Below, piece after piece: positions 1 through 30,637 of a DNA stretch of 64,000 bases. The notes below the pieces were generated by a model, which saw nothing but the letters and a program-made list of their open reading frames with translations, searched no databases and had not been told where the DNA came from. A program made the position numbers and the translations under genes. Position 1 is the stretch's first letter. The number at the start of each line of letters is the position of its first letter. The stretch is from an uncultured virus (IMG/VR IMGVR_UViG_3300043568_001227). Taxonomy: Duplodnaviria > Heunggongvirae > Uroviricota > Caudoviricetes. The stretch is taken from IMG/VR virus record IMGVR_UViG_3300043568_001227, positions 1 to 64,000 of that record; one strand, given 5' to 3'.

Positions 1-834
1 ATTCTCACCTGATGTTCCATTCTCTCCCGAAGTTCCGCTTTCACCTGAAGTTCCGCTTTCACCTGAAGTACCACTTAATCCGCTAGTACCGCTCTCACCC
101 GAAGTTCCATTCTCTCCCGAAGTTCCATTCTCTCCCGAAGTTCCGCTTTCACCTGAAGTTCCACTTAATCCGCTAGTTCCGCTTTCACCTGAAGTTCCAC
201 TTAATCCGCTAGTACCGCTCTCACCTGAAGTACCGCTCTCACCTGAAGTACCGCTCTCACCTGAAGTTCCATTCTCACCTGAAGTTCCATTCTCACCTGA
301 TGTTCCATTCTCTCCCGAAGTTCCGCTTTCACCTGAAGTTCCGCTTTCACCTGAAGTACCACTTAATCCGCTAGTACCGCTCTCACCCGAAGTTCCATTC
401 TCTCCCGAAGTTCCACTTTCACCCGAAGTTCCATTCTCTCCCGAAGTTCCATTCTCACCCGAAGTTCCATTCTCACCTGAAGTTCCATTCTCGCCTGAAG
501 TTCCATTCTCGCCTGAAGTTCCATTCTCGCCTGAAGTTCCATTCTCTCCTGAAGTTCCGCTTTCACCACTTGACCCTGAGGTTCCTGAAGTTCCTGAAGT
601 ACCAGTTCCACCACCTGAGGTTTTTAAGACTAAATCTAAGTCGGTAATACCACTAAGATACCAATATTCAACAATATCAGTTACTCCCGTTAAAATACCC
701 ACAGTTAATCCAATATATCTATTTGCGGTAATAACACTGGTGTTAGCAAATGTTGTACTAGAATATGGCCCAAACCTACTATCTAATGGTTTTGGTGAAA
801 AAGTTGTTAAATTATCATTTATTATAATACCCAT
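1..834 (-). CDS. Gly-X-Y repeat (GTSGEN) fibre-like protein, 3' end runs off the window; missing from the ORF track
   Basis: ATG at 834-832; manual translation MGIIINDNLTTFSPKPLDSRFGPY...RYIGLTVGI...VEYWYLSGITDLDLVLKTSGGG then GTSGENGTSGEN/GES repeats, open to position 1. Confidence 0.85.
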   Translation of the reverse strand, partial: MGIIINDNLTTFSPKPLDSRFGPYSSTTFANTSVITANRYIGLTVGILTGVTDIVEYWYLSGITDLDLVLKTSGGGTGTSGTSGTSGSSGESGTSGENGTSGENGTSGENGTSGENGTSGENGTSGENGTSGENGTSGESGTSGENGTSGESGTSGLSGTSGESGTSGESGTSGENGTSGENGTSGENGTSGESGTSGESGTSGESGTSGLSGTSGESGTSGLSGTSGESGTSGENGTSGENGTSGESGTSGLSGTSGESGTSGESGTSGENGTSGEN

Positions 835-838
835 ATCT

Positions 839-2728: not shown

Positions 2729-3670
2729 ATGAAAAAAATATGTCTTGATTTATCGGAAGCAAAGGCAATCGGGGATACCCTTTGCTCAACCCCCGTACTT
2801 AGAAAACTACATCAATCATATGACTCAAAAGTTACCGTTGTAACTAATTTCCCTGAATTATTTAAAAATCATCCTTTGGTTGAAAAGGTTTACCACTCGA
2901 ATTCGGTTAATTTAGATTTCATTAAATCTAATTTTATAACTCATAATTCATTTTATGAGAATGGACAAAAAAATAACCGAGGAGTTGAGTTTAAACATAA
3001 CCGTATTGACATTAGACAATATCACGCAATTAAACTTGGTTTTATGTTAACCAAAGATGAAATGAATATTGATTATATTCCTGATGAGTATGAACCAATT
3101 AAAGGATTACCTGAGAAATATGTACTAATACACCCCGTCCAAAATTGGCCAAGCAGAACTTGGGATGCGGTTAAATGGATGGAATTAAGTAAAAAATTAA
3201 ACGACCATAATATTAGTGTAATTTCAGTTGGTAAAGACTCAAGTGAGGTTGGATTTTTTAATGTTAAAAAACCAATTTTTAATTTTGAGATTAAAAATGG
3301 CCTTAATTTAATGAATAAAACCACATTAAGTCAATCGTGGCATTTAATTAATAAATCATTGTGTTTTGTCACAATGGATTCAGGATTACTTCATTTAGCA
3401 GGAACAACTGATTCAGAAATCATTCAATTAGGAAGTTCTATCAATTACGAATTTAGAGCCCCATATCGAAATAATTCACAAGAATATAAATACCATTATG
3501 TTGGTGGTGGTTGTAGTCTGTTTTGTGGTTCAGATATAAAATACGGAGTTAAAGAATGGGGGGATATCCAAGGGGTACCACCTTTAATTAATTGTTTAGA
3601 AAATAAACCAACATTTGAGTGCCATCCCTCAGTTGAGCAAGTGTTTAATAAAATTTTAGAAATTATATGA
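2729..3670 (+). CDS. Glycosyltransferase family 9 (heptosyltransferase-like)
   Basis: AIGDTLCSTPVLRKL, VLIHP, FVTMDSGLLHLAG motifs; Cys-rich C-terminus. Confidence 0.85.
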   Translation: MKKICLDLSEAKAIGDTLCSTPVLRKLHQSYDSKVTVVTNFPELFKNHPLVEKVYHSNSVNLDFIKSNFITHNSFYENGQKNNRGVEFKHNRIDIRQYHAIKLGFMLTKDEMNIDYIPDEYEPIKGLPEKYVLIHPVQNWPSRTWDAVKWMELSKKLNDHNISVISVGKDSSEVGFFNVKKPIFNFEIKNGLNLMNKTTLSQSWHLINKSLCFVTMDSGLLHLAGTTDSEIIQLGSSINYEFRAPYRNNSQEYKYHYVGGGCSLFCGSDIKYGVKEWGDIQGVPPLINCLENKPTFECHPSVEQVFNKILEII

Positions 3671-4692
3671 AAATAGGAATATTACTTTCCGCATACAACT
3701 CCGAAGAATATATTGATGAGTGTTTACGTCCTTGGATAAACTTAAAAAATGAATTAGACATTACTATTGGTTGTAATAGTGGTATGTACCAGGAATATAT
3801 TAATTTTGGATTTAAACCAAAGAATAAAGAGACTCTAACTAAATTAATAAATTATGAATTAGACTTTTTAATCACCACAGGAATGAAATCATTGTTTGGT
3901 GAAAATGAGAGTAAGAATAATGTTTTACATGTCTTAAAGAATAATTGTGATTTAGTTTGGATTGTGGATTCTGATGAGTTTTACACCGAAGACGAAATTA
4001 GAAATATTTTAAATTTTATTCAGGAAACACCTCAATACGATTGGTATTCGGTTAACCTTAAAAATTACACATTTACAAAACAGTTATGGGTGGATGGTTT
4101 CTGTCCACCAAGAATTTTTAGAACCAATAGGAATGGAGGGATAACTCATTTTTATTTTGACAACCATATCTTATATAACGATGGTGAAACTTTTGAATCT
4201 AAACCAACAATTTCGATACCAAGAGATATTGCATGGGTTAAACATTATTCTTGGTTAAATGAGGATAGTAGGTCTAAAGAAAAAATCAGTTACCAACAAC
4301 AAAGATTTGTCGGTGGTTGTTCATTTATTTGGGACGATAAAACCAACTCTTTAAAATATTCAGAAAACTTTTACGAAAGTCGTGGTTTGGAAAAACCAAT
4401 TTTACACGAATCAATTGATATCTCCTCAAATGAATTTACAATTGATTTTATTAGAAATGAGAATAAATTTTATATTAAAAATATAACTAAACCACAATCA
4501 CTAAATTTTAGATTTTTTGATGGACAGACAGGGGACCAAATTTATGAAACATTTTTAAACATTCTACCCAAAACAACTTATTTTGTGTGGCCGTCATCAA
4601 TTATATTTCACGAAATTAATGAGTTCAAAAAATTCAGAGTTGAGGTGACATTAAACAAACAAATAATCCATAACGAATTTATACACATATAA
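3667..4692 (+). CDS. GT-A fold (GT2-like) glycosyltransferase with C-terminal accessory domain
   Basis: ILLSAYNSEEYI start, WIVDSDEF DxD motif, PRIFR, KHYSW. Confidence 0.75.
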   Translation: MKIGILLSAYNSEEYIDECLRPWINLKNELDITIGCNSGMYQEYINFGFKPKNKETLTKLINYELDFLITTGMKSLFGENESKNNVLHVLKNNCDLVWIVDSDEFYTEDEIRNILNFIQETPQYDWYSVNLKNYTFTKQLWVDGFCPPRIFRTNRNGGITHFYFDNHILYNDGETFESKPTISIPRDIAWVKHYSWLNEDSRSKEKISYQQQRFVGGCSFIWDDKTNSLKYSENFYESRGLEKPILHESIDISSNEFTIDFIRNENKFYIKNITKPQSLNFRFFDGQTGDQIYETFLNILPKTTYFVWPSSIIFHEINEFKKFRVEVTLNKQIIHNEFIHI

Positions 4693-4693
4693 T

Positions 4694-5647
4694 ATGAATA
4701 ATATTTTTACAGTAACTAATATTGAAGAGAATGGTATAATCCATTTTGACTTTAATGGTGATGACATAAAAGAAATATACGAGGTCTCAATTATTGATAA
4801 CAATACGGGATTAACCGTACATAAATCAAACATGGGGTTACGAAAAGGAACCAATTGGTGGATATCGACTGGTGAATCTAACGCAAAAAGACTTAGAAAC
4901 ATAACCTTATCCATTATGTATGGTGACCTACAATATTCTCAGGAATTAAAACTATTTGGTCAAAATAGATTTTTAGTAATTAACTCAAAACAAGTTAAAT
5001 TATCTCACTTGGGGGATGATTTATTTCCAATTGTTACTGAGATTTTTTACGATAAAGTATATGAGAGGGATTTTGTTAGACTTAGCATCAATGATACGGT
5101 TGTTGATATTGGGGCGAATTACGGAGTATTCTCATTATACTCACAAATGTTTAACCCATCTAACGTTTATGCGGTAGAACCTCTTAAGGCTACATTTAAA
5201 AGTATGAAAAAGAATCTTTCCGAACACGGAGTAACTTGTATTAATAAGGCGGTTAGTAATGAGAATGGGTTTGAGAAATTTATGATAACCGAAGTTAATG
5301 GTAATAATTTTTCACAAAAAAACGAAAGTGGGTTTCACCCATCAACAGTGATTGGTGAAGAGATTGTTGAGACTATCACTATTAACCAATTAATTTCTGA
5401 CTACGATATCGACAGAATTGATTTTTTAAAAGTTGATTGTGAAGGTGGTGAGTTGGATTTATTCCGAACAATTGATAAAGAATATTTACAAAATAATATT
5501 GGTAAAATTGCAATGGAATACCACTCAAAAGAAATTTACGATGAAGTTTTAGATATACTAAAATCAAACAACTTTATAATTGAGGATACTTTAGGGTCTA
5601 ACGATATCGGATTAATTTACGCATATAATATTAATTTAATAAAATAA
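4694..5647 (+). CDS. FkbM-family SAM methyltransferase
   Basis: VVDIGANYGVFS, YAVEP, IDFLKVDCEGGE. Confidence 0.9.
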   Translation: MNNIFTVTNIEENGIIHFDFNGDDIKEIYEVSIIDNNTGLTVHKSNMGLRKGTNWWISTGESNAKRLRNITLSIMYGDLQYSQELKLFGQNRFLVINSKQVKLSHLGDDLFPIVTEIFYDKVYERDFVRLSINDTVVDIGANYGVFSLYSQMFNPSNVYAVEPLKATFKSMKKNLSEHGVTCINKAVSNENGFEKFMITEVNGNNFSQKNESGFHPSTVIGEEIVETITINQLISDYDIDRIDFLKVDCEGGELDLFRTIDKEYLQNNIGKIAMEYHSKEIYDEVLDILKSNNFIIEDTLGSNDIGLIYAYNINLIK

Positions 5648-8334
5648 TGAAAAAGAAAAAAATATTAGTTGTTTCTCCTCATTTAAGTACTGGAGGAGCG
5701 CCTCAAGTCACATTAAATAAAATACAATTAATTAACAATGAATATGAAATCAAATGTGTTGAGTACGCATTTGTTGCTTGGACGTTTGTCGTTCAAAGAA
5801 ATCAAATACAAGAATTACTTGGTGATAATTTCCATTCTTTAGGGGAAGATAAAAACGAGTTAATTAGAATTGTTAATGAGTTTAAACCTGATGTTGTTAG
5901 TATGGAAGAATTTCCTGAATTTTTCATGGATGATTCTGTCACAAAAGAATTATATAGGGAAGATAGGGAATACACAATATTTGAAACCACACATGATTCT
6001 AGTTTTTCTGTTTCACATAAAAGATGGTTCCCCGATAAATTTATATTCGTAAGTGCGTATAACGCATTTAGATATTCTATATATGATATTCCGTATGACA
6101 TTGTTGAATACCCTGTAGACTATAAAGAAAAAAATAAAAAACAAAACCAAGAATTATTAGATTTAGACCCAACATATAAACATGTTTTAAATGTTGGATT
6201 GTTCACGGCAAGAAAAAATCAATCCTATATTTTTGACATCGCACATAAATTAAAGGATTATAAAATAAAATTTCATTTTTTGGGTAATCAGGCCGAAAAC
6301 TTCCAATCATATTGGGGTCCGTTGATTAAAAATAAACCTGATAACTGCGTTGTTTGGGGAGAAAGAAAAGACGTACAATCATTTATTGAAGCGTCGGACT
6401 TATTCTTGTTTCCTTCAAAAGGTGACAGAAACAATAAAGAATTAAACCCAATCGCCTTAAAAGAGGCTTTGGAGTATAGAATCCCAATGATGATGTATAA
6501 CTTGGATGTTTATTGTGGAAAATACGATAAGTACGAAAATATAACATTTTTAACAGGAGATATTAATCATGATACATCAAAATTACTATCATTATTAAAT
6601 CCTTATAAAGAAAAATATGATAATAATGAGTTAGTTATTGTTGGTACTTATCCGAATACTAAATCACGAGAAAAATTAACTATCGAATGTATTAAGTCTG
6701 TTAAAAAATTAGGTCGAAAAGTAATGTTGGTTTCTCATTATCCAGTGTCGAACGATATTCAAAAAATGGTCGACTATTATATTTTTGATTCAAATAACCC
6801 AACAACAGAACATTCTTATTATACTAAGTTTTATAATTATAAATCAGAGTTTGATGTTGAGATTAACATTAACGGATTAAAAGATACTAACCAATCATTA
6901 CCTGTTTTAACTAATTTAATTAATGGGTTTAAATCCGCAAAAGATTTTAATTTTAATAAAGTATTTTACATAACCTACGATGTTATATTACATCATGATG
7001 ATATTGAATATGTTAATCAATCATTTAAATTGTTGGATGAAAAAGACGCATTCTTATGTACTTTACCTACGGCGTTTAATGTTGGTATTGAGACTACCGC
7101 AATGACGTTTAAAACTGATTTCTTTTTAGAAAAATTTTCACATATAATAACTAAAGAAATTTACAAATCAGAATGTAGAATAAATAATTGTCAAAACTTC
7201 TTAGAGGATTTCTTTTATAAGAAATTAATTCACGAACCAACAGTTAATGTCATTACAAATGATAGTCATACATTCTTAATTAATTCAGGTAAAGGAGTCT
7301 CATCTAATTCAGAATACTATTCTATATTACCAATTATTAATAACGAGAATAAATGGGTGTTTTATTTCTACACATATAATATTGATGACAGAACAGTTAG
7401 TGTTGAGATTAATAAAAATAACGAAACCATTTATTCTAAATCATTTAATATTCTACAAACCCGAGAATTCTTAAAAGAAATTGACTACGATGGAGTTCCA
7501 ATAGAGATTAAGTTAACCTTTTTTGAGGGTGGAGTTCAATATAAATCAGAATCTTACATATTAAATAATGAAACAATAATTAGTTACAAAAATAATGGAT
7601 GGTTTAAGTATAAACGATTACCTAAAATTAAATTAGTTCATTTACAAACAACAAATAACGATGAGAGAGAAATCTTATCAAGAGAGTCGTTACAACAAGT
7701 ATCAAAATACGGTATTGAATATGTTTTACATACAAATGAACTATACAAATCTATACCTCCATCACATAATTGTGTTAGACCACAATGTGTGTCTATGGAA
7801 CTTTTTGATGAAGAGACAACAAACCGACTAGGTACTGCACTAACACCAGCACATTACGGATGTTTTGAATCATTTAAAAATGGTATTATATCTGAATTCG
7901 ATAAAGATTTGGATTTCTTAATTGTTTGTGAGGGAGACTGTTTAATTGAGGTCCCTATTGAGGAATTCATTGATAAAGTTAAACAAGTGTGTGATACCGT
8001 TATCGAATCGGACATACAATATTTTTCATTTGGGGACACTAAAACATTAGACTTCGCTTGGCATCAATCAAATGTGATTAAAGAAATCCCGAACCAAGAC
8101 TTGTTGTTTATTACTGATAAAATTATTGGGTTACAATGTATTATGTTCCCAAGAAAAACTAGAGAATTCTTATACGAACAATTACGTAATCATAAGTGGG
8201 ATTGTGCTGACTCATATTTCAACCTTATTTTTATCGAACATGGGTTAAATATGGGTATTCTAAAAAACAGAATTACAACTCAAGCTGATGGAGTGTCATT
8301 AATCGATAAGGAATTTAAAACATTTATTAAGTAA
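5647..8334 (+). CDS. Multidomain glycosyltransferase (GT4-like + uncharacterised SHYP domain + GT25-like)
   Basis: PHLSTGGAPQV, NVGLFTARKNQ, DLFLFPS...ELNPIALKEAL (GT-B); middle VMLVSHYPVS; C-terminal AHYGCFESF...LIVCEGD. Confidence 0.75.
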   Translation: MKKKKILVVSPHLSTGGAPQVTLNKIQLINNEYEIKCVEYAFVAWTFVVQRNQIQELLGDNFHSLGEDKNELIRIVNEFKPDVVSMEEFPEFFMDDSVTKELYREDREYTIFETTHDSSFSVSHKRWFPDKFIFVSAYNAFRYSIYDIPYDIVEYPVDYKEKNKKQNQELLDLDPTYKHVLNVGLFTARKNQSYIFDIAHKLKDYKIKFHFLGNQAENFQSYWGPLIKNKPDNCVVWGERKDVQSFIEASDLFLFPSKGDRNNKELNPIALKEALEYRIPMMMYNLDVYCGKYDKYENITFLTGDINHDTSKLLSLLNPYKEKYDNNELVIVGTYPNTKSREKLTIECIKSVKKLGRKVMLVSHYPVSNDIQKMVDYYIFDSNNPTTEHSYYTKFYNYKSEFDVEININGLKDTNQSLPVLTNLINGFKSAKDFNFNKVFYITYDVILHHDDIEYVNQSFKLLDEKDAFLCTLPTAFNVGIETTAMTFKTDFFLEKFSHIITKEIYKSECRINNCQNFLEDFFYKKLIHEPTVNVITNDSHTFLINSGKGVSSNSEYYSILPIINNENKWVFYFYTYNIDDRTVSVEINKNNETIYSKSFNILQTREFLKEIDYDGVPIEIKLTFFEGGVQYKSESYILNNETIISYKNNGWFKYKRLPKIKLVHLQTTNNDEREILSRESLQQVSKYGIEYVLHTNELYKSIPPSHNCVRPQCVSMELFDEETTNRLGTALTPAHYGCFESFKNGIISEFDKDLDFLIVCEGDCLIEVPIEEFIDKVKQVCDTVIESDIQYFSFGDTKTLDFAWHQSNVIKEIPNQDLLFITDKIIGLQCIMFPRKTREFLYEQLRNHKWDCADSYFNLIFIEHGLNMGILKNRITTQADGVSLIDKEFKTFIK

Positions 8335-9311: not shown

Positions 9312-9974
9312 ATGAAAAGAGATATTAGATTAGTTAGTATATTTAATAAACCAATGGTGGTATTTGATGGCCCTGAATGTATTTCAGATGACATAGTAAA
9401 ATACAATAATTTTTGGGAATTTAAGATTGTTAACAAATGGTTACATTTTTTTCCTAAAAACGGTCTTTATCTGGATATTGGGGCTAACATAGGTAATCAC
9501 TGCGTACAATTAAAACATTATTTACCAAATATATCTATTTGGGCTTTTGAGCCGTATTTTGAAAATTATGAATTACTTAGATTAAACACTAAACAATTGG
9601 ATAACGTACATTGTTTTTGTTTAGGTGTTGGTAGTTGTAATTCCATGGTACATTTCGACAATGGTCATGACTCTAATAGTGGTGTTGTTAAAGTAGTTGA
9701 GTATAGTAATAACACTAATTTAGTAATTTCTTTAGATACATTTAATTTACCCGAACCCGTTAAGTTTATTAAAATTGATGTTGAGGGATTTGAAAAATCT
9801 TCGTTTGAAGGAATGGTTAATTTATTAGAAAAAGATAAACCGATGATTTGGTTAGAAGATATTGGTGGGGACGCGGTCACGTTTTTACTAATGAAAGATT
9901 ATATCATTGTCGATTCTCAGGAAGAGAGTAGAGATTATTTAATGGTTCACATAACCAACAAACACAAATATTAA
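9312..9974 (+). CDS. FkbM-family SAM methyltransferase
   Basis: YLDIGANIGNH, WAFEP, FIKIDVEGFE. Confidence 0.9.
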   Translation: MKRDIRLVSIFNKPMVVFDGPECISDDIVKYNNFWEFKIVNKWLHFFPKNGLYLDIGANIGNHCVQLKHYLPNISIWAFEPYFENYELLRLNTKQLDNVHCFCLGVGSCNSMVHFDNGHDSNSGVVKVVEYSNNTNLVISLDTFNLPEPVKFIKIDVEGFEKSSFEGMVNLLEKDKPMIWLEDIGGDAVTFLLMKDYIIVDSQEESRDYLMVHITNKHKY

Positions 9975-19400: not shown

Positions 19401-22400
19401 CCGCTAGTCCCCGAAGAACCTGATGAACCCGAACTTCCGCTTGTACCCGATGTTCCTGAAGAACCACTCGAGCCCGAACTTCCACTACTTCCTGATGTAC
19501 CCGCAGTTCCTGAAGAACCACTACTACCACTTGAACCTGAACTACCTGAAGTTCCGCTTGTTCCCGCACTTCCTGATGTGCCCGCAGTTCCTGAAGAACC
19601 ACTTGACCCAGAAGAACCTGAACTACCACTACTACCTGATGTTCCGCTAGTACCTGAGGTTCCGCTTATACCACTCGTACCACTTGACCCTGAAGAACCT
19701 GACGTTCCACTTGTTCCAGATGTACCACTTGAGCCCGAACTCCCTGACGTTCCGCTTGTTCCTGATGAACCTGACGTTCCGCTCGTACCTGAACTACCCG
19801 CAGTTCCTGATGAGCCTGATGAGCCTGAAGTTCCAGAAGAACCACTTGTACCTGAACTTCCACTACTTCCTGAAGAACCTGAAGAACCACTCGACCCTGA
19901 TGTTCCTGAACTTCCACTAGAACCTGACGTTCCCGCAGTTCCTGATGTTCCGCTACTTCCACTCGAACCCGAACTACCGCTTGAACCTGATGAACCGCTT
20001 GTACCTGACGAGCCACTTGAGCCTGAACTTCCACTCGTACCAGCAGTTCCTGATGAGCCACTACTTCCGCTTGAACCCGATGAACCTGATGTACCACTCG
20101 TTCCTGATGTACCACTCGTTCCCGAAGAACCTGACGTACCTCTAGTTCCTGATGTTCCACTCGAACCTGATGTTCCTGAAGAACCACTTGAACCTGAACT
20201 ACCTGAACTACCTGAAGAACCGCTAGTACCTGAAGACCCTGATGTTCCACTACTTCCACTTGAACCCGAAGAACCTGATGTACCATTAGTTCCATTAACA
20301 CCACTAATTCCACTTGAACCTGAAGTTCCGCTAGTACCTGACGAACCTGATGTTCCGCTAGTCCCCGAAGAACCTGACGTACCTCTAGTTCCAGAAGTTC
20401 CTGAAGAACCGCTACTACCACTCGAACCCGAAGACCCACTTGACCCCGAACTACCGCTAGTACCTGCAGTCCCTGATGAGCCACTTGTACCCGCAGTCCC
20501 TGATGAACCACTACTTCCACTTGAACCTGACGTTCCACTTGTTCCTGATGTTCCTGAAGAACCTGAAGTACCTCTAGTTCCTGATGTACCCGAACTTCCT
20601 GAAGAACCACTTGTTCCTGATGACCCTGAAGTACCGCTAGTTCCTGAAGAACCACTCGAACCCGAACTTCCACTACTTCCTGATGTACCCGCAGTTCCTG
20701 AAGAACCGCTTGTTCCTGATGTCCCACTTGTACCAGTACTACCTGAAGTACCTGAAGAACCACTTGAACCTGATGAACCACTACTTCCACTTGACCCTGA
20801 GGTACCTGATGAACCTGAAGTTCCTGATGAACCTGAAGTTCCTGATGTTCCACTACTTCCGCTTGTTCCACTACTTCCGCTTGAACCCGAACTACCTGAA
20901 GAACCACTTGTTCCGCTAGTTCCTGATGAACCTGAAGTACCTGATGTTCCGCTTGAACCCGAACTACCTGAAGAACCACTTGAACCTGAACTTCCACTAG
21001 AACCTGACGTTCCCGCAGTTCCTGATGAACCTGACGTTCCCGAAGTTCCTGATGAACCTGATGTTCCGCTAGTTCCAGATGTTCCTGAAGAACCTGAACT
21101 ACCACTTGAGCCTGACGTACCGCTTGTCCCCGAGGAACCTGACGAGCCACTACTACCACTTGAACCTGAAGTTCCACTTGAACCTGAACTACCTGATGAG
21201 CCACTTGTTCCCGCAGTTCCACTTGAACCTGATGTTCCGCTAGTTCCTGAAGAACCACTTGAACCAGATGAACCTGATGTCCCACTTGTACCAGCACTAC
21301 CTGAAGAACCACTTGAACCTGAGCTTCCTGAAGAACCTGAGGTTCCTGATGTACCACTTACACCTGAACTTCCGCTTGAACCTGAACTACCTGATGTTCC
21401 GCTAGTTCCTGAAGAACCACTTGTACCCGCAGTACCACTTGAACCTGAACTACCTGACGACCCACTTGAACCTGAACTACCTGACGAACCACTTGTTCCG
21501 CTAGTCCCTGATGAACCGCTTGTTCCTGATGTTCCACTTGTACCAGCACTACCTGAAGTTCCTGAAGAACCGCTAGTACCGCTTGAACCTGAACTTCCTG
21601 ATGAACCTGATGTTCCACTTGTACCAGCACTACCTGATGTACCCGCAGTTCCTGAAGACCCACTTGAACCTGAACTACCACTACTTCCACTTGAGCCTGA
21701 TGTTCCACTTGTACCTGAACTACCTGACGTTCCACTAGTACCTGAAGAGCCCGAAGTTCCGCTTGTTCCCGAACTACCTGAAGTACCTGAAGAACCACTT
21801 GTTCCTGAAGAACCTGAACTACCTGAAGTACCCGCAGTTCCTGATGAACCCGAACTACCACTACTTCCACTTGAGCCTGATGTTCCACTTGAACCTGAAG
21901 TACCACCTGTTCCTGATGTACCTGAAGAACCACTAGACCCCGAAGAACCTGATGTTCCTGATGTACCACTTACACCACTTGAGCCTGAAGTACCCGCAGT
22001 TCCTGAACTACCTGACGTACCACTTGTTCCGCTTGAACCTGAAGACCCTGATGTACCACTACTACCAGATGACCCGCTAGAGCCTGAACTTCCACTTGTG
22101 CCCGCAGTCCCTGAAGAACCTGAACTTCCTGATGTACCTGAAGACCCACTAGACCCTGAACTTCCGCTTGTTCCCGCAGTTCCTGATGAACCACTACTTC
22201 CACTTGAACCTGATGTTCCTGAAGTTCCACTCAATCCTGATGAACCACTTGAACCTGAAGACCCTGATGTACCAGCAGTTCCTGATGAACCACTACTTCC
22301 ACTTGAACCTGATGTTCCGCTTGTTCCTGATGAACCCGAAGACCCACTTGAACCTGATGAACCGCTACTACCACTTGAGCCAGACGTACCCGAAGTTCCT

Positions 22401-22975: not shown

Positions 22976-25900
22976 TTAGAAGACAATCCTTGTTCCTACA
23001 CTTATATCCCAAGTTCCGCCTCCAATTGCTGCGTACAACTCAAGATTTGAACCTATAATTACTGTGTAGAATTTAACCGCCACCGTTGAAGCGTTTAAAT
23101 CAGGTGTTGAACTATCAGTAAATGCCGTATTAGTTCCGTCCCACACTGTCATAATAATACCACTTCTCATCGCGTTTGTTCCAGAATCGTATACGTAATA
23201 ATCAAATGTTGCACTTGAACCTGATGCGAATGGAAAACGACAAATTAATGTTGTTGTTGTAACACCTGTTTCTCTACATGATTGTAATGACTGATTACCT
23301 TGTTCAATAGTGTCACCTGTTATTCCTAAAGTAGTACCATCAAAGGTTAAATTAGGTTCTGATGTTATACCACCCGCACCATCTGAAGTTAATACTTCAT
23401 TATCATTACCTGATACGACAGGAGATAAACCACTTGTACCTGAAGAACCTGATGTCCCACTTGTCCCTGATGTCCCACTAGTTCCTTGCAAACCACTTGT
23501 TCCGCTCGTACCCGTAGTTCCCGAAGAACCACTTGTACCCGATGTTCCTGAAGAACCGCTTGTTCCTGATGAACCAGAACTACCTGATGTTCCGCTTGAG
23601 CCCGAACTACCCGATGTTCCTGATGAGCCACTCGTACCTGAAGTTCCGCTCGTACCCGATGTTCCTGAACTACCTGACGTACCCGATGTTCCTGAACTAC
23701 CTGACGTACCCGATGTTCCTGAAGAACCACTTGTTCCTGATGTTCCACTACTTCCTGATGTACCTGCAGTTCCACTTGAACCCGATGTTCCTGAAGAACC
23801 TGAAGACCCGCTTGTTCCTGAAGAACCTGACGTTCCACTTGTACCACTAGACCCTGAACTACCTGAGGAACCACTTGAACCTGATGTTCCACTTGTACCC
23901 GCAGTTCCTGAAGAACCCGAACTACCACTAGAACCTGATGTTCCCGATGTTCCACTACTTCCGCTTGTACCCGCGGTTCCTGATGAACCCGATGTTCCAC
24001 TACTCCCTGAAGTTCCTGATGAACCTGAACTACCTGATGTTCCGCTTGTACCCGCAGTTCCTGATGAACCACTTGTTCCTGAACTACCCGAAGAACCCGA
24101 AGTTCCACTACTTCCACTAGAACCTGATGAACCCGAAGAACCGCTTGACCCCGATGTTCCACTACTTCCACTTGTACCCGCAGTTCCTGAAGAACCGCTA
24201 CTTCCTGAAGAACCACTTGACCCCGATGAACCGCTTGTTCCTGAACTACCCGATGTTCCACTACTTCCGCTTGTGCCTGATGTACCTGCAGTTCCTGAAG
24301 AACCGCTTGTTCCTGATGTTCCTGAAGACCCCGAACTACCACTAGAACCTGAAGACCCCGAACTACCACTTGAACCTGAAGTTCCGCTAGTTCCTGAAGA
24401 ACCACTTGACCCCGACGAACCTGAACTTCCTGACGTTCCACTAGTACCCGCAGTTCCTGAAGAGCCGCTACTACCGCTTGAACCTGAACTACCTGAAGTT
24501 CCTGATGAACCACTTGAACCTGATGAACCGCTACTACCACTTGAGCCAGACGTACCTGAAGTTCCTGATGAACCTGATGTACCTGCAGTTCCTGAAGAAC
24601 CACTTGTCCCACTAGACCCTGATGAACCTGATGAGCCACTTGAACCTGAACTACCGCTAGTGCCTGATGTACCCGAGCTACCACTTGTTCCTGACGAACC
24701 ACTTGTTCCACTTGAGCCCGAACTACCTGATGAACCTGATGTTCCTGATGAGCCACTCGTACCTGAAGTTCCGCTAGTTCCTGAAGAACCTGATGAGCCA
24801 CTCGTACCTGAAGAACCGCTAGTTCCTGAAGAACCTGAAGTTCCACTAGTTCCTGAAGAACCACTTGTCCCCGACGTTCCTGAACTACCCGATGTACCAC
24901 TTGAACCTGAACTACCTGACGTTCCCGATGTTCCACTACTTCCACTAGAACCTGAACTACCACTAGAACCTGATGTTCCACTTGTACCTGAAGAACCGCT
25001 TGACCCTGATGTTCCACTACTTCCACTTGTACCTGCAGTACCTGAAGAACCGCTTGACCCCGATGAACCGCTTGTCCCACTAGACCCTGATGAACCTGAA
25101 CTACCACTAGAACCTGAACTTCCTGATGTACCTGAACTTCCGCTAGTACCTGATGTTCCGCTAGTCCCACTTGTACCCGCAGAACCTGAAGTTCCTGATG
25201 ACCCGTTAGTTCCTGATGAACCACTTGAACCTGAAGTTCCGCTAGTTCCTGAAGAACCACTTGTCCCTGACGTACCTGAACTTCCGCTAGTTCCTGATGA
25301 ACCACTTGTACCTGATGTTCCGCTAGTACCTGATGTTCCTGAAGAACCACTTGTCCCTGACGTACCTGAACTTCCGCTAGTTCCTGAAGAACCACTTGAA
25401 CCTGATGACCCTGAACTTCCACTAGTTCCTGAAGTACCACTTGAACCTGAAGTTCCGCTAGTTCCTGAACTTCCGTTAGTTCCTGATGAACCACTTGTTC
25501 CTGATGAACCACTTGTTCCTGATGAACCACTTGTTCCTGATGAACCGCTTGTTCCTGAAGTACCCGAAGAACCTGACGTTCCACTTGTTCCCGATGAACC
25601 ACTTGAACCCGATGTTCCTGATGAACCATTAGTTCCTGAAGTACCCGAAGAACCTGACGTTCCACTTGTTCCCGATGAACCACTTGTACCTGAACTACCG
25701 CTAGTTCCTGATGAACCTGAACTTCCTGACGTTCCGCTTGTACCCGCAGTACCTGACGAACCACTAGACCCTGAACTTCCTGATGAACCTGAACTTCCTG
25801 ATGTTCCACTTGTTCCGCTAGACCCTGAAGAACCGCTTGACCCCGATGTTCCGCTAGTTCCTGATGAACCACTAGTTCCTGACGAACCTGAAGTACCACT

Positions 25901-28900
25901 TGAACCTGATGTTCCTGAAGAACCCGATGTTCCTGAAGAACCATCTGTTCCGCTAGTTCCTGACGAACCACTTGAACCTGATGTCCCCGATGAACCTGAA
26001 CTACCGCTAGTGCCTGATGTACCCGAGCTACCACTTGTTCCTGACGAACCACTTGAACCTGATGACCCGCTTGTACCTGAAGACCCACTTGTTCCACTAG
26101 AACCTGATGTCCCACTTGACCCTGAAGTTCCTGATGAGCCACTTGTTCCGCTTGAACCAGATGTACCACTTGTTCCTGATGAACCATTTACACCACTAAT
26201 ACCACTTGAGCCTGAAGTTCCGCTACTACCATCCGTTCCTGATGAACCATCTGTTCCACTTGTACCTGAACTACCGTCAGTTCCGCTTGTTCCTGAAGTT
26301 CCACTTGACCCATCTGTTCCTGATGAACCATCTGTTCCACTAGTACCTGATGTTCCTGATGAACCATCTGTTCCACTAGTACCTGATGTTCCTGATGAGC
26401 CATCCGTACCTGAAGTACCACTAGTTCCTGAAGAACCATCTGTACCACTTGTTCCGCTAGTTCCTGAAGAACCATCAGTTCCGCTAGTTCCTGAAGAACC
26501 ATCAGTTCCACTTGTACCTGAACTACCATCAACACCACTTAATCCACTTGAACCTGATGTTCCTGAAGTACCTGAACTACCGCTAGTTCCTGATGAACCT
26601 GAACTTCCACTTGTTCCCGATGAACCATCAGTACCTGAAGTACCACTAGTTCCCGAAGAACCATCTATTCCTGAAGTTCCTGAAGAACCATCAACACCAC
26701 TTAATCCGCTTGAACCCGATGTTCCTGAAGAACCATCAGTTCCGCTTGTTCCTGATGAACCATCGGTTCCACTAGTACCTGATGTTCCTGAAGAGCCGTC
26801 TGTACCTGAAGTTCCTGAAGAACCGTCTGTTCCTGATGTTCCTGAAGAACCGTCTGTTCCTGAAGTTCCACTTGTTCCTGAAGAACCATCGGTTCCACTT
26901 GTTCCTGAAGAACCATCGGTTCCACTAGTACCTGATGTTCCTGAAGAGCCGTCTGTACCTGAAGTACCACTACTTCCTGAAGAACCATCAGTTCCCGAAC
27001 TTCCGCTAGTTCCTGAAGAGCCGTCTGTACCTGATGTACCGCTAGTTCCTGAAGAGCCGTCTGTACCTGATGTACCACTAGTTCCTGAAGAACCATCAGT
27101 TCCTGAACTCCCACTAGTCCCTGAAGAACCATCTGTTCCGCTTGTTCCTGAAGAACCATCTGTTCCTGAAGTACCTGAACTTCCACTTGTTCCTGAAGAA
27201 CCATCTGTTCCGCTTGTTCCTGAAGAACCGTCAACACCACTTAATCCACTTGAACCTGATGTTCCACTACTCCCATTAGTTCCACTTGTTCCTGAACTAC
27301 CATCTGTTCCTGAAGTTCCACTAGTACCTGAAGAGCCATCTGTTCCCGAAGTTCCTGAAGAACCATCTGTTCCTGATGAACCATCTGTTCCGCTAGTTCC
27401 TGATGAACCATCTGTTCCACTAGTACCTGAAGTACCTGATGAACCATCTGTTCCGCTAGTGCCTGAAGAACCGTCAGTTCCGCTTGTTCCTGAACTACCA
27501 TCCGTACCGCTTGTTCCTGAACTACCATCAGTCCCACTTGTTCCTGACGAACCACTTGTTCCTGATGAACCATCTGTTCCTGAAGAACCACTGGTCCCCG
27601 ATGAACCGTTAGTACCGCTTGTTCCTGATGAACCATTCACACCACTAATACCACTTGAACCTGACGAACCTGACGAGCCATCTGTCCCGCTAGTTCCTGA
27701 AGAACCGTCAGTACCACTTGTTCCTGAACTTCCTGAAGAACCGCTAGTCCCTGAAGAACCATCCGTTCCACTTGTTCCTGAAGAACCATCTGTACCTGAA
27801 CTTCCACTAGTTCCTGAACTTCCACTAGTTCCTGAAGAACCATCTGTTCCTGAACTACCGTCAGTTCCGCTAGTTCCTGAAGAACCATCAACACCACTTA
27901 ATCCACTTGAACCCGAGGTTCCTGAACTACCATCTGTCCCACTTGTACCTGATGTACCGCTAGTTCCTGAAGAGCCGTCTGTACCTGATGTACCACTAGT
28001 TCCTGAAGAACCATCAGTTCCTGAACTCCCACTAGTCCCTGAAGAACCGTCAGTTCCGCTTGTACCTGAAGAACCATCAACACCGCTTAATCCGCTTGAC
28101 CCCGATGTTCCTGAAGAACCATCAGTTCCGCTAGTTCCTGAACTACCGTCAGTACCCGAACTTCCACTTGTTCCCGATGACCCATCTGTTCCTGAAGTAC
28201 CTGATGAACCATCTGTCCCTGAAGTACCTGAAGAACCATCTGTTCCACTAGTACCTGAACTACCATCTGTTCCACTTGTTCCTGAGGAACCGCCTGAACC
28301 TGAAGAACCGCTTGTACCAGAACTTCCACTTGTACCTGAAGAACCATCAGTACCCGAACTTCCACTTGTACCTGAAGAACCATCAGTTCCGCTTGTTCCT
28401 GAAGAACCATCAGTACCGCTAGTTCCTGAAGAACCACTTGACCCCGATGTTCCTGAAGTACCTGAACTACCGTCAGTACCGCTAGTTCCTGATGAACCAT
28501 CTGTTCCTGAAGTACCTGAACTTCCACTTGTTCCTGAAGAACCATCTGTTCCTGAAGTACCTGAAGAACCATCAACACCACTTAATCCACTTGAACCTGA
28601 TGTTCCACTTGTTCCTGAAGAACCATCTGTTCCGCTTGTTCCACTAGTACCTGAAGAACCATCAGTTCCGCTTGTTCCTGAAGAACCATCAGTACCGCTA
28701 GTTCCTGAAGAACCGTCTGTTCCGCTTGTTCCTGAAGAACCGTCAACACCACTTAATCCACTTGAACCTGATGTTCCACTTGTTCCCGATGACCCATCTG
28801 TTCCGCTAGTTCCACTTGTTCCTGATGAACCATCTGTTCCGCTAGTTCCTGAAGAACCGTTAGTACCACTAGTTCCTGATGAACCATCTGTTCCTGAACT

Positions 28901-30637
28901 ACCGCTTGTCCCTGATGAACCATCTGTTCCGCTTGTTCCTGAAGAACCTGACGTACCATTAGTTCCGTTAACACCACTAATTCCACTTGAACCCGAGGTA
29001 CCACTTGAACCATCGGTACCACTTGTTCCTGAACTACCGTCAGTTCCACTTGTTCCTGAAGAACCATCAGTTCCTGAAGTACCTGAACTCCCACTTGTTC
29101 CTGAAGAACCGCTAGTCCCTGAAGAACCATCCGTTCCACTTGTTCCTGAAGAACCATCTGTTCCTGAACTTCCGCTTGTTCCTGAACTACCGTCAGTTCC
29201 GCTAGTTCCTGATGAACCATCTGTTCCTGAACTACCGTCAGTTCCACTTGTTCCTGAAGAACCATCAACACCACTTAATCCGCTTGAACCCGAAGTGCCT
29301 GAACTTCCGTCAGTTCCACTTGTTCCTGATGAACCATCTGTTCCTGAACTTCCGCTAGTTCCTGATGAACCATCTGTTCCTGAAGTTCCTGAACTACCGT
29401 CAGTTCCGCTTGTACCTGAACTACCATCTGTACCACTTGAGCCCGATGTTCCTGAAGAACCATCTGTTCCACTAGTTCCTGATGAACCATCTGTTCCTGA
29501 ACTACCGTCAGTACCGCTTGTTCCTGAAGAACCGTCAATACCACTAGTTCCTGAACTACCGTCAGTTCCACTTGTACCTGAACTACCGTCAGTTCCACTT
29601 GTACCTGAACTACCATTGGTACCACTTGTTCCGCTTGAGCCCGATGTTCCTGAAGAACCATCTGTTCCTGATGTTCCTGAAGACCCACTATTTCCTGACG
29701 TACCTGAACTACCATCGGTCCCACTAATACCTGAAGTCCCTGAAGAACCATTAACACCACTTATACCACTAGACCCTGAAGTTCCCGAAGAACCATCAGC
29801 ACCTGAAGTTCCCGAACTACCGTCAGTTCCTGAAGTTCCTGAAGAACCGTCAATCCCACTTGTTCCTGAAGAACCTGACGTTCCTGAAGAACCGTCAGTC
29901 CCACTTGTTCCTGAACTACCATCAGTACCTGAAGTACCTGATGAACCATCAGTACCCGAACTTCCACTAGTCCCTGAAGAGCCGTTAGTCCCTGAAGAGC
30001 CGTTAGTCCCTGAAGAGCCGTTAGTTCCTGAAGAACCACTACTACCAGAAGAACCACTACTACCTGACGTACCCGATGTTCCTGATGAACCACTTTCACC
30101 CGAAGAACCCGATGAACCCGATGAACCGTTAGTTCCTGAAGAACCGTTAGTTCCTGAAGAACCGTTAGTTCCTGAAGAACCACTACTACCAGAAGAACCA
30201 CTTGAACCTGAACTTCCTGATGAACCACTTGAACCTGAACTTCCTGATGAACCACTTGTTCCACTAGAACCTGATATTCCTGAAGTACCACTTGAACCTG
30301 ATGTTCCTTTAGTTCCTGAACTACCCGAAGAACCGCTACTTCCTGATGTTCCACTACTTCCTGAAGAACCACTTAAACCTGAAGTACCATTTTGACCACT
30401 TGAACCTGACGAACCATTAACACCACTTGTTCCTGATGAACCATTAACACCACTTGTTCCTGCAGTACCTGAAGTACCAGCAAGGGATAGAGCATCCGCA
30501 ATTTGTTGGATACTTGCTTTATATGATGAACCTGCGGGGTTTTGTGATGTATCACCCGTAATGACAATGTGTACAATGTCATCTGGAGATACTATCGGAG
30601 CTTGGGTTCTGTCGGTCAGTCTTTGATAATTCGGCAT
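22976..30637 (-). CDS. Giant Gly-X-Ser/Asp repeat fibre-like protein (2553 aa)
   Basis: Short N-terminal anchor, about 2350 aa of GTD/GSS/GTS triplets, C-terminal NEVLTSDG...SEPNLTFDG motif and beta-rich domain. Confidence 0.8.
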   Translation of the reverse strand: MPNYQRLTDRTQAPIVSPDDIVHIVITGDTSQNPAGSSYKASIQQIADALSLAGTSGTAGTSGVNGSSGTSGVNGSSGSSGQNGTSGLSGSSGSSGTSGSSGSSGSSGTKGTSGSSGTSGISGSSGTSGSSGSSGSSGSSGSSGSSGSSGSSGSSGTNGSSGTNGSSGTNGSSGSSGSSGESGSSGTSGTSGSSGSSGSSGSSGTNGSSGTNGSSGTNGSSGTSGSSGTDGSSGTSGTDGSSGTSGTDGSSGTSGSSGTSGIDGSSGTSGTDGSSGTSGADGSSGTSGSSGISGVNGSSGTSGISGTDGSSGTSGNSGSSGTSGTDGSSGTSGSSGTSGTNGSSGTSGTDGSSGTSGTDGSSGTSGIDGSSGTSGTDGSSGTDGSSGTSGTDGSSGTSGSSGTDGSSGTSGTDGSSGTSGTDGSSGTSGSSGTDGSSGTSGTDGSSGTSGSSGLSGVDGSSGTSGTDGSSGTDGSSGTSGTDGSSGTSGSSGTDGSSGTSGTDGSSGTSGSSGTSGSSGTSGTDGSSGTSGTDGSSGTSGTDGSSGTSGSSGISGVNGTNGTSGSSGTSGTDGSSGTSGSSGTDGSSGTSGTNGSSGTSGTDGSSGTSGTSGTDGSSGTSGTSGSSGLSGVDGSSGTSGTDGSSGTSGTDGSSGTSGTDGSSGTSGTSGTDGSSGTSGTSGSSGLSGVDGSSGTSGTDGSSGTSGSSGTSGTDGSSGTSGTDGSSGTSGTSGSSGSSGTSGTDGSSGTSGTDGSSGTSGSSGTDGSSGTSGSSGTSGSSGSGGSSGTSGTDGSSGTSGTDGSSGTSGTDGSSGTSGTDGSSGTSGSSGTDGSSGTSGTDGSSGTSGSSGLSGVDGSSGTSGTDGSSGTSGSSGTDGSSGTSGTSGTDGSSGTSGTSGTSGTDGSSGTSGSSGLSGVDGSSGTSGTDGSSGTDGSSGTSGSSGTSGSSGTDGSSGTSGTDGSSGTSGSSGSSGTSGTDGSSGTSGTDGSSGSSGSSGISGVNGSSGTSGTNGSSGTSGSSGTDGSSGTSGSSGTSGTDGSSGTSGTDGSSGTSGTDGSSGTSGTDGSSGTSGTSGTDGSSGTSGTDGSSGTDGSSGTSGTDGSSGTSGTSGTDGSSGTSGTNGSSGTSGSSGLSGVDGSSGTSGTDGSSGTSGSSGTSGTDGSSGTSGTDGSSGTSGSSGTDGSSGTSGTSGTDGSSGTSGTSGTDGSSGTSGSSGTDGSSGSSGTSGTDGSSGTSGTSGTDGSSGTSGTDGSSGTSGTSGTDGSSGTSGTDGSSGTSGTDGSSGTSGTSGTDGSSGTSGTDGSSGTSGSSGLSGVDGSSGTSGIDGSSGTSGTSGTDGSSGTSGSSGSSGTSGSSGTSGTSGSSGLSGVDGSSGTSGTDGSSGTSGTDGSSGTSGTSGTDGSSGTSGTSGTDGSSGTSGTSGTDGSSGTSGTSGTDGSSGTDGSSGTSGTSGTDGSSGTSGTDGSSGTDGSSGTSGSSGISGVNGSSGTSGTSGSSGTSGSSGTSGSSGTSGSSGTSGSSGTSGSSGSSGSSGTSGSSGTSGTSGSSGSSGTSGSSGSSGTSGTDGSSGTSGSSGTSGSSGTSGSSGTSGSSGTSGTSGSSGSSGSSGTSGTSGSSGSSGSSGSSGSSGTAGTSGTSGSSGSSGTSGSSGTSGSSGTSGTSGSSGTSGTNGSSGTSGSSGSSGTSGTSGSSGTSGTSGSSGTSGSSGTSGSSGTSGSSGTNGSSGTSGTSGSSGTSGTSGSSGSSGSSGSSGTSGSSGTSGTSGSSGTSGTSGTSGTSGSSGTSGSSGTSGTSGSSGTSGTSGSSGSSGTNGSSGTSGSAGTSGTSGTSGTSGSSGTSGSSGSSGSSGSSGSSGTSGSSGSSGSSGTAGTSGSSGTSGSSGSSGTSGTSGSSGSSGSSGSSGTSGTSGSSGSSGTSGSSGTSGTSGSSGTSGTSGSSGTSGSSGTSGSSGSSGTSGTSGTSGSSGTSGSSGSSGSSGTSGSSGTSGSSGTSGTSGSSGSSGSSGSSGSSGTSGSSGTAGTSGSSGTSGTSGSSGSSGSSGSSGSSGTSGSSGSSGSSGSSGTAGTSGTSGSSGSSGSSGSSGTSGTSGSSGSSGSSGSSGSSGSSGTSGTSGSSGTAGTSGTSGSSGTSGSSGTSGSSGSSGSSGSSGSSGTAGTSGSSGTSGSSGSSGSSGSSGSSGTSGSSGSSGTSGSSGTAGTSGTSGSSGSSGTSGSSGTSGSSGTAGTSGSSGTSGTSGSSGSSGSSGTAGTSGTSGSSGSSGSSGSSGTSGTSGSSGTSGSSGSSGTSGSSGTAGTSGSSGTSGTSGSSGTSGTSGSSGTSGTSGSSGTSGTSGTSGTSGSSGTSGSSGSSGTSGSSGSSGTSGSSGTSGTSGSSGTTGTSGTSGLQGTSGTSGTSGTSGSSGTSGLSPVVSGNDNEVLTSDGAGGITSEPNLTFDGTTLGITGDTIEQGNQSLQSCRETGVTTTTLICRFPFASGSSATFDYYVYDSGTNAMRSGIIMTVWDGTNTAFTDSSTPDLNASTVAVKFYTVIIGSNLELYAAIGGGTWDISVGTRIVF
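23430..30480 (-). repeat. Periodic repeat tract of the 2553-aa gene
   Basis: Same 9-nt periodicity; Asp-rich part about 25945-29960; boundaries approximate. Confidence 0.9.

Follow-up and report, generated by a model that had tools for sequence, protein, structure and literature searches.

Candidate O-glycosylation of giant collagen-like fibres by a TibC/Aah-type enzyme operon in an uncultured lake-water T4-like phage

The viral contig of IMG/VR record IMGVR_UViG_3300043568_001227 is 77.7 kb long. Its first 64 kb, hereafter referred to as the window, carry three genes composed for the most part of Gly-X-Y triplets and, beside them, a tightly packed operon of glycosyltransferases and methyltransferases, one product of which bears a domain of the TibC/Aah family of protein O-glycosyltransferases. 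The contig comes from an uncultured phage of lake water that is T4-like by its genes. Comparative analyses revealed a recurrent association of the TibC-like domain with Ser/Thr-rich collagen-like genes, in viruses as well as in bacteria, and this evidence supports the pairing of the enzyme with the repeat proteins as its acceptors. We consider it probable, from gene content and comparison, that the operon O-glycosylates the phage's own fibres.

Gly-X-Y repeat genes and the adjoining operon

The three repeat genes and the operon are located where a preliminary description, drawn from the letters of the window, had placed them. All three repeat genes lie on the minus strand and are recognised by the Pfam Collagen model (1076 and 1017 bits for the two long genes, 112 bits for gene A) and, for the long ones, by the count of Gly-X-Y runs. 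Gene B (13472-22825) encodes 3117 residues, successively a 106-residue N-terminal domain, runs of 684, 132 and 36 triplets parted by two globular inserts of ~120 residues each, which show no relation to each other in sequence comparison, and a 212-residue C-terminal domain containing Cys. Gene C (22976-30637; 2553 residues) is simpler, with a 53-residue N-terminus, a single run of 784 triplets (GSS, GTS, GTD) and a 148-residue C-terminal domain. Gene A (1-834) starts with a 74-residue N-terminal domain followed by at least 68 triplets, in which GTS alternates with GEN/GES, and is cut by the contig end, base 1 of the window being base 1 of the contig.

The long products are rich in Ser and Thr, which together account for 1734 residues in gene B and 1439 in gene C. 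In the arrays of gene B, the X position is occupied by Ser in 465 triplets, by Thr in 350 and by other residues in 37 (Ser/Thr in 815 of 852 triplets), and the Y position by Ser in 787 and others in 65; in gene C, Y is Ser in 644 of the 784 triplets and Asp in 103. The Gly-X-Y period of collagen (PF01391) is unbroken in every run (784, 684, 132, 36 and at least 68 triplets), and Gly is replaced nowhere in the 1636 triplets of genes B and C, while X and Y vary. The imino acids and charge pairs that stabilise collagen are lacking: no proline occurs at X or Y in the arrays of genes B and C, and the arrays are almost uncharged. At the DNA level, each repeat period is divisible by 9 bp, with 63-92% matches between copies. 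The repeats are thus old and diverged and are no collapsed assembly artefact, and the constancy of Gly in 1636 of 1636 triplets despite this divergence points to selection for glycine at every third residue, a hallmark of the triple helix.

The same arrays could otherwise be glycosylated and yet disordered, in the manner of mucin-like bottle-brushes, their three-residue period being a by-product of repeat growth by 9-bp units. The 9-bp multiples would suit such an origin, as would the lack of proline and near absence of charge, and we know of no stable triple helix of proline-free, nearly uncharged sequence; moreover, the bacterial counterparts presented below are short and mix in Gly-Gly-Ser/Thr triplets. 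Set against this, the failure of any substitution to reach Gly over 1636 triplets whose DNA has diverged and whose X and Y positions vary, together with Pfam Collagen scores above 1000 bits, makes disorder an improbable state of the arrays.

The size of gene B is no accident of assembly, since the same 3122-codon open frame is present in nine other IMG/VR contigs with different dataset numbers. Like the present contig, these nine all end inside the array of gene A, within ~0.5 kb of window position 1; this array, a more uniform repeat of 18 bp, thus breaks every short-read assembly. Long open frames on the opposite strand of the repeat genes (e.g. 16341-22544) break at the globular inserts of gene B and are best regarded as shadows of the repeats. 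A 16-residue motif, GTSGTRGTSGSSGT(S/A)G, occurs in 18 copies in gene B, where it carries every Arg of the collagen arrays, and is not present in gene C. Its core, GTRGTSG, was found in 13 of 26 viral Gly-X-Y clusters, 18 times in Microcystis phage Mel-JY01 and twice in the Arenicellales proteins (both described below); the motif may mark the register or serve for docking or cleavage.

The C-terminal 148 residues of gene C were modelled as a beta-sandwich with a predicted local distance difference test score (pLDDT) of 67.5. Foldseek gave no match to this model at E <=0.001, the best rows being C-terminal domains of phage tailspikes and tail fibres (E 0.005-0.04, template-modelling (TM) score <=0.44), and no homologue of 260-2000 residues was found for the domain. 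At the triple-helix rise of 0.286 nm per residue, the arrays would, if triple-helical, measure ~590, 110 and 30 nm in gene B and 670 nm in gene C.

The operon comprises nine translationally coupled genes on the plus strand (2729-13440), with intergenic gaps of -4 to +1 bases, and encodes up to nine glycosyltransferase domains, two FkbM methyltransferases and one DUF6165 protein. Pfam, NCBIfam and PDB searches bore out most of the enzymes proposed in the preliminary description, namely the GT9, the two FkbM, the two GT4 and the TibC/Aah domains. The first gene (2729-3670) encodes a GT9 glycosyltransferase of 313 residues (Pfam GT9, 55 bits) that lies below all NCBIfam heptosyltransferase cut-offs. 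Although devoid of the N-terminal beta-barrel, it aligns with the TibC-like domain at 22% identity over 314 residues (E 9e-10), retaining a GD(T) Asp and, at the C-terminus, a four-Cys ...FECHPS motif; it is best described as a second, divergent TibC-like catalytic domain, so that the operon opens and closes with relatives of this family. The second product (3667-4692; 341 residues) is possibly a GT-A/GT2 enzyme, the GT2-like call made earlier being left below the Pfam cut-off (Glycos_transf_2, 20.7 against 23.3 bits), and is followed by an FkbM methyltransferase of 317 residues (4694-5647; Pfam 70 bits, NCBIfam TIGR01444 98.5 bits).

The fourth gene (5647-8334) encodes an 895-residue enzyme of three domains: an N-terminal GT4 (GT1 group of Pfam), a middle GT-A domain paralogous to the next product (25% identity) and a GT25-like C-terminus. 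For this last domain, the earlier GT25-like call is retained as a lead from the ESM-Atlas (0.96, 28 of 30 matches), with no sequence match in the PDB. The next product (8334-9311; 325 residues) has a GT-A fold and a C-terminal beta-sandwich in an AF2 model of pLDDT 92.9, to which Foldseek brought TarS, human ColGalT1, SpsA, TarP and mimivirus R699 (E 4e-7 to 3e-5, TM 0.35-0.41); its 55 homologues include none of a named family. A second FkbM methyltransferase (9312-9974; 220 residues; Pfam, PHROG and NCBIfam) and a 329-residue paralogue of the 8334-9311 protein (9976-10965; 21% identity) precede the central enzyme of this study, a 700-residue fusion (10967-13069) of GT4 (residues ~1-340), a beta-barrel region and the TibC/Aah-like domain (370-698). 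The operon ends with a DUF6165 protein of 123 residues (13069-13440; Pfam 33.4 bits), and the 31-base gap between it and gene B holds a hairpin with a 14-bp stem and T-runs on both strands (13438-13469), which looks like a bidirectional terminator shared by the operon and gene B. A promoter scan returned 77 sites for 76.9 expected. Of the repeat genes formerly said to flank the operon, gene B does adjoin it; gene A is parted from it by two other genes (839-2002 and 2043-2636).

None of the nine operon proteins has a membrane-spanning hydrophobic segment, and no flippase, polymerase or lipid-carrier transferase was found at the operon. According to a review cited in PMC7029224 and to a preprint listing (10.1101/2023.12.21.572611), phage glycosyltransferases often act on DNA. 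The same activity is extremely improbable for the present transferases, whose key member belongs to a protein-modifying family, and modification of the phage DNA was set aside because no base-hypermodification genes occur in the operon.

The TibC/Aah-like domain and its association with Gly-X-Y genes

Residues 370-698 of the 700-residue protein reach 285.3 bits with NCBIfam TIGR04414, for an equivalog cut-off of 200, and align to TibC residues 48-380 (PDB 4rb4, E 8e-51), whereas lipopolysaccharide (LPS) heptosyltransferase models give at most 20.8 bits for cut-offs of at least 185. The protein is hence a true member of the TibC/Aah family, as had been anticipated. Residues of known function in TibC, i.e. 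the catalytic Asp-110, the sugar-binding residues, the Cys of the iron finger and the thumb, were taken from the available text of the structure paper (PMC4358343) and mapped through the TibC alignment and an alignment of 26 phage homologues, then over the 105 phage-side rows of the tree presented below. The catalytic base corresponds to Asp-436, Thr-226, Lys-230 and Trp-305 to T548, K552 and W617, and C339/342/358/370 to C652/655/671/683. All of these are invariant in the 26 phage homologues and each is kept in at least 101 of the 105 phage-side rows, the catalytic Asp in 104; a four-Cys iron finger is accordingly predicted in the 700-residue protein. The stereoselectivity site Pro-300 is replaced by Ser, as in AAH. 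No AIDA repeat or autotransporter domain was found in the window.

In IMG/VR, 218 contigs encode a relative of the TibC-like domain, and the linkage counts that follow rest on the best 80 of them, a Gly-X-Y frame being defined as a stop-to-stop frame with a run of at least 8 triplets and at least 60% Ser/Thr. A Ser/Thr-rich Gly-X-Y open reading frame lies within 10 kb of the enzyme in 53 of the 80 loci, and in 34 of the 40 loci that have at least 8 kb on both sides. When the loci are clustered at 85% identity, 27 of 39 clusters possess such a frame, and just 2 of the 12 clusters without it are fully flanked. The median distance from the enzyme to the Gly-X-Y frame is 781 bp, in 50 of the 53 loci the frame follows the enzyme gene and has the opposite orientation, as it does in the window, and arrays of at least 50 triplets occur in 48 loci. 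As a control, the capsid-gene loci of related phages contained a Gly-X-Y frame in 2 of 80 cases (1.03 Mb versus 1.37 Mb scanned). The composition of the neighbouring arrays recalls that of genes B and C, with medians over 38 clusters of 0.74 for Ser at Y and 0.905 for Ser/Thr at X, and proline near zero.

The reverse scan, based on the back-translated GTSGSSGTSGSSG pattern, retrieved 76 loci from 58 contigs. Whole records were searched for 46 of these contigs; a TibC-like protein is encoded by 14 of the 46, by 7 of the 10 records of at least 60% completeness and by 4 of the 5 of at least 90%. Presence and absence also agree in five of five large relatives: collagen hits were obtained for the three that encode the enzyme, and none over the cut-off for the two that do not, one of which is a 296-kb record rated 100% complete. 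The co-occurrence of TibC-like and Gly-Ser/Thr-Ser genes across phage genomes, put forward in the preliminary description as a way to check its proposal, is thus found in both directions.

The organisation of the enzyme is conserved as well, since the TibC-like domain is part of a fusion of 674-1495 residues in 33 of 36 untruncated viral representatives; bacterial enzymes of the AIDA side (see below) are mostly stand-alone. Among 38 other viral clusters, a GT4 domain is present in 34 and FkbM in 13, and the divergent GT9, the GT-A paralogues, the GT25-like domain and DUF6165 each in just 5-7 (DUF6165 in 7). We infer from this distribution a conserved core of TibC-like and GT4 domains, completed by a variable tailoring set that is unusually rich in the phage of the window. 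The pair also occurs in a cultured phage, Microcystis phage Mel-JY01 (PP395634.1), which encodes a 1226-residue FkbM-to-TibC-like fusion, 44% identical over the domain, with a collagen-like gene of 202 triplets ~1.7 kb upstream of the fusion gene (L083:2-3052). At this place, the PP395634.1 annotation shows two minus-strand hypothetical proteins and a short plus-strand coding sequence instead of the plus-strand collagen-like frame; the latter begins at the first bases of the record and the gene may wrap round the record ends.

A profile scan of prokaryotes, with one genome per species, yielded 476 relatives, of which the best 80 were examined. Gly-X-Y neighbours were found at 15 of these 80 loci, all of them among those nearest to the phage enzymes. 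In a FastTree phylogeny of 162 rows, a long branch (0.59 changes per column, support 100) separates 57 bacterial rows, none with a Gly-X-Y neighbour, from a phage side of 105 rows (82 viral, 23 bacterial or metagenome-assembled), 69 of which have one. The same split was recovered by IQ-TREE (LG+C20, short search) for 100 representatives: two plasmid enzymes adjacent to AIDA-I group with 41 bacterial rows lacking a Gly-X-Y neighbour, with full support, and the window enzyme falls in a 47-row set with viral rows (support 96). Among the largest neighbouring open reading frames, taken at 30 of the 57 bacterial-side loci, 23 carry AIDA repeats and 5 of them also an autotransporter beta-domain. The enzyme family therefore splits by the repeat type of its neighbour, AIDA adhesin on one side and Gly-X-Y on the other.

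On the phage side, a clade of seven gammaproteobacterial rows has Gly-X-Y neighbours in all seven. One of the bacterial loci lies in a 5.18-Mb Arenicellales chromosome, where a stand-alone enzyme of 377 residues is flanked by three small Gly-Ser/Thr-Ser proteins (L180:8459-12529). Read by eye, each of them begins with a signal peptide that bears a lipobox-like Cys, continues with the Gly-Ser/Thr-Ser repeats and ends in poly-Asp. The surrounding genes, a sensor kinase and a sigma-54 regulator among them, indicate a non-prophage setting, and the locus may represent a bacterial version of the same enzyme-acceptor pair.

This specificity of linkage bears on two other roles that the enzymes could have. 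They could modify a glycan of the host surface, be it the LPS core, the O-chain or some other one, for instance against superinfection, their adjacency to fibre genes being that of a shared hypervariable region for host recognition. In pelagimyophages, which are related marine myophages, transferases are read as host LPS modifiers in the available text of PMC7029224. By their Pfam and NCBIfam names, the GT9, GT25 and GT4 families include LPS-core enzymes, and the missing membrane segments are compatible with such a function since the GT-B enzymes of the LPS core are soluble too; yet the key domain scores above the equivalog threshold of a protein O-glycosyltransferase family and below that of each LPS heptosyltransferase model, it is linked specifically with the repeat genes, both in bacteria and in phages whose gene order differs, and no flippase, polymerase or lipid-carrier transferase accompanies it. 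We regard a host-surface role as unlikely.

The acceptors could also be other phage proteins, instead of or besides the arrays, such as the Thr-Pro-linker protein encoded at 2043-2636, the neighbouring 387-residue protein or capsid and tail proteins. Conservation of the Thr-Pro-linker protein next to the operon extends to 10 related loci, a far narrower linkage than that of the Gly-X-Y frames (53 of 80), and at the bacterial loci the partners of the enzyme are exclusively Gly-Ser/Thr-Ser proteins. Enzymes without a Gly-X-Y gene at 6 of the 40 fully flanked loci, and the extensive glycosylation of virion proteins by mycobacteriophages described in the available text of PMC12582341, would fit such acceptors, which we hold to be quite improbable.

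Besides the reading given to the pelagimyophage transferases, several observations weigh against glycosylation of the phage's own fibres. The six fully flanked loci just mentioned indicate that the pairing is not obligatory. The enzyme was found within the fetched 10-kb flanks in just 6 of the 58 pattern-bearing contigs, whose records are mostly small fragments with flanks filled by the giant genes, and 32 of the 46 whole records lack it, most of these being small fragments; two fairly complete records (98% and 84%) nevertheless have the pattern without the enzyme. The split of the tree is a single deep event, and the contrast between its two sides does not amount to many independent trials. 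As kin share their labels, the weight of the comparison lies in the persistence of the linkage through rearranged phage and bacterial contexts. The end domains of the fibres match no annotated structural family, PHROGs giving families of unknown function only, plus one marginal match to 'virion structural protein' (E 0.005).

The remaining objections concern the enzyme and its donor sugar. The sugar-binding Arg-286 is replaced by Thr-598. All 59 AIDA-side rows have Arg at this site, against 9 of the 105 phage-side rows, and this loss in the phage clade suggests that the donor may not be ADP-heptose, which weakens the expectation of the preliminary description that the glycan starts with heptose (+192 Da). 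The thumb hairpin (Phe-265/Val-266), which joins TibC dimers into a dodecamer according to the structure paper as available (PMC4358343), is ~10 residues shorter in the phage enzyme (deletions of 6 and 4), the thumb segment measuring 47-48 residues on the AIDA side against a median of 38 on the phage side. No ADP-heptose pathway was found on the contig, whose part beyond the window encodes head-assembly proteins alone, and gmhA was found in none of the five large relatives. The sole heptose-related gene of the contig (39676-40134) encodes a 152-residue nucleotidyltransferase that scores almost equally with HldE domain II (69.8 bits) and with a glycerol-3-phosphate cytidylyltransferase (69.2 bits), falling far short of either cut-off. 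A host origin of the sugar is possible.

Source phage and neighbouring genes

The phage origin assumed in the preliminary description is borne out by four markers of T4-like (Straboviridae-type) phages: a gp23-type capsid protein in the window (61711-63582; Pfam Gp23, 248 bits) and, in the remainder of the contig, a gp20 portal (Portal_T4, 254 bits), a T4-type terminase (Terminase_6N) and a prohead protease (Peptidase_S77). PhoH and dUTPase are also encoded in the window. CheckV rates the contig as 26% complete, and close relatives have genomes of 270-300 kb, including two IMG/VR records of 272 and 296 kb with capsid proteins 78-79% identical. The capsid protein has at most 46% identity to that of any deposited phage, the nearest belonging to a 484-kb uncultured phage, Microcystis phage Mel-JY01 and Flavobacterium phages. 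The enzyme gene is present in 20 DNA metagenome runs from lake water; no RNA runs were listed among the sequencing runs searched for it. The G+C content is 28-32% across the window and 43-50% in the repeat genes. With 623 residues, the capsid protein is far longer than the 376-position gp23 profile, which it matches in two stretches (profile positions 3-45 and 107-356), pointing to a large inserted or extra N-terminal region; this length is kept in relatives at 59-95% identity.

The two minus-strand genes between gene A and the operon encode a Ser/Thr-rich protein of 387 residues (839-2002), with no Pfam or PHROG match and two weak matches among PDB sequences (best E 0.023), and a 197-residue protein with two (Thr-Pro)n linkers (2043-2636), whose presence at the 10 related loci was established by tblastn and which may act as adaptor or chaperone, or itself accept glycans. 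A 100-residue protein directly ahead of gene C (30685-30987, minus strand) shares with this 197-residue protein an N-terminal domain of ~74 residues, so that each of the two lies directly ahead of a fibre gene set. Further along the same minus-strand block as genes B and C, a 344-residue protein of LamG/concanavalin-like lectin fold (31079-32113; Pfam Laminin_G_3, 48 bits) is the sole neighbour that resembles, albeit weakly, families of virion or baseplate proteins (PHROG baseplate-wedge and virion structural families, E 3e-5 to 2e-4). The block is headed by proteins of 165 and 1001 residues (32171-35670, minus strand) without Pfam or PDB match, the larger giving a weak LamG lead in the ESM-Atlas; an orthologue with 64% identity exists at a related locus (L078).

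A second cluster of sugar-related genes occupies 38454-49539 on the plus strand, interspersed with a 3'-5' exonuclease, dUTPase and PhoH. It encodes a phrog_7162 glycosyltransferase, a GT2_5+GT2 protein, two more GT2 enzymes, the 152-residue HldE-II/TagD-like nucleotidyltransferase, a DegT-like fragment, a Methyltransf_24 protein, a hexapeptide acyltransferase and a MaoC dehydratase, and its products may synthesise or attach additional sugars of these fibres, or have another role. At a related locus, a nucleotidyltransferase is fused to an M23 peptidase (L246:12169-13464). The window also encodes a WYL-domain protein (37315-37749), a protein with a weak OmpA-like domain (57568-59013) and an MGS-like domain protein (59222-59662).

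Proposed mechanism and relation to known glycosylation systems

In the scheme that we propose for glycosylation of the fibres, the soluble operon enzymes would act on the fibre polypeptides in the cytoplasm of the infected cell, a location suggested by their lack of membrane segments and comparable to that of TibC, which acts in the cytoplasm before export of its substrate according to the available text of PMC4358343. The TibC/Aah-type domain of the 700-residue protein would attach the first sugar to hydroxyl groups of Ser (or Thr) in the triplets. The glycan would then be lengthened by the GT4 domain of the fusion and by the remaining transferases (the second GT9, four or five GT-A domains and the GT25-like domain), and methylated by the two FkbM enzymes. 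The glycosylated chains would then trimerise and form long fibres on the virion, with arrays ~0.6-0.7 micrometre long if triple-helical; adsorption, shielding or drift, the uses put forward in the preliminary description, are possible roles for them. The substrate, the identity of the sugar, the triple helix, the placement on the virion and the biological role of the fibres are what we infer from these genes and their relatives. Since the arrays have no proline and almost no charge, a glycan is plausibly needed for the stability of the helix or for solubility; glycosylated threonine plays such a part in a cuticle collagen of a vent worm.

A more far-reaching version of this proposal appears possible but doubtful. 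The sugar would replace hydroxyproline, in such a way that a proline-free triple helix holds only once densely O-glycosylated; the TibC-family enzyme would have been retooled for this purpose, by loss of the thumb and a changed donor contact, and the methylated bottle-brush fibres of 0.6-0.7 micrometre would constitute a virus-made glycocalyx for long-range host capture or shielding. The same pair would serve the surface lipoproteins of free-living bacteria, and the system would be widespread among aquatic microbes and their viruses.

The closest known systems are TibC-TibA and Aah-AIDA-I of E. coli (bacterial autotransporter heptosyltransferases, BAHT; TIGR04414; PDB 4RAP/4RB4; PMC4358343), which belong to the same family, with the same catalytic Asp and four-Cys iron finger. 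The phage domain keeps three of the four sugar-binding residues and an alignable N-terminal beta-barrel region, and its gene likewise adjoins that of a long Ser-rich repetitive protein. The phage neighbour is, however, Gly-X-Y collagen-like and not an AIDA-repeat beta-helix autotransporter, and the enzyme itself differs by the replaced Arg-286 and the shortened thumb hairpin, by being virus-encoded, fused to GT4 and embedded in a multi-enzyme operon, and by its position beyond the deepest split of the family tree.

Collagen-like acceptors are found in other glycosylated surface structures. Bacillus BclA, in the exosporium, has Gly-X-Thr/Ser collagen-like repeats that are proline-rich (GPT) and bear O-linked sugars, and forms a hair-like surface nap. 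The phage arrays share the Gly-X-Thr/Ser collagen-like character, but are proline-free and much longer, and the enzymes differ; a C1q-like C-terminal domain was not demonstrable in the gene C model with Foldseek. Mimivirus encodes the glycosylation of its surface fibrils as well as a hydroxylysine-based glycosylation of collagen. A virus-encoded machinery for fibrils, as proposed here, would be common to both, the mimivirus being a giant virus of eukaryotes with other enzymes.

To our knowledge, virion glycosylation has so far been reported by experiment for mycobacteriophages, whose glycan targets are reportedly capsid and tail-tube subunits. Phage transferases acting on the phage's own structural proteins, here proposed from genes alone, are the point of likeness with these phages, as presented in PMC12582341 with reference to Freeman et al. 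(2023); enzyme families and acceptors are different, with neither collagen-like fibres nor a BAHT enzyme. In the host-recognition cluster of pelagimyophages, which are likewise T4-like aquatic phages, numerous transferases share a single variable region with tail-fibre genes and collagen-repeat proteins. In the available text of the corresponding paper (PMC7029224), however, the transferases are assigned to the host LPS, and no TibC-type enzyme or enzyme-fibre pairing is described. A literature search, to which subscription journals were largely external, found no paper pairing a phage TibC-type enzyme with collagen-like fibres. Phage virion glycosylation and BAHT enzymes being already known, the present finding is a variant of these.

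If the proposal is true, virion glycosylation would extend to the abundant T4-like and huge phages of freshwater and marine environments, and the TibC/Aah family would gain a second, structurally unrelated class of acceptors. The fibres would represent a natural collagen stabilised or solubilised by O-glycans instead of proline, and many of the 'LPS-type' transferases in the host-recognition regions of phages would need re-reading. The cultured phage Mel-JY01, which carries both the enzyme and a collagen-like gene, makes this reading directly testable.

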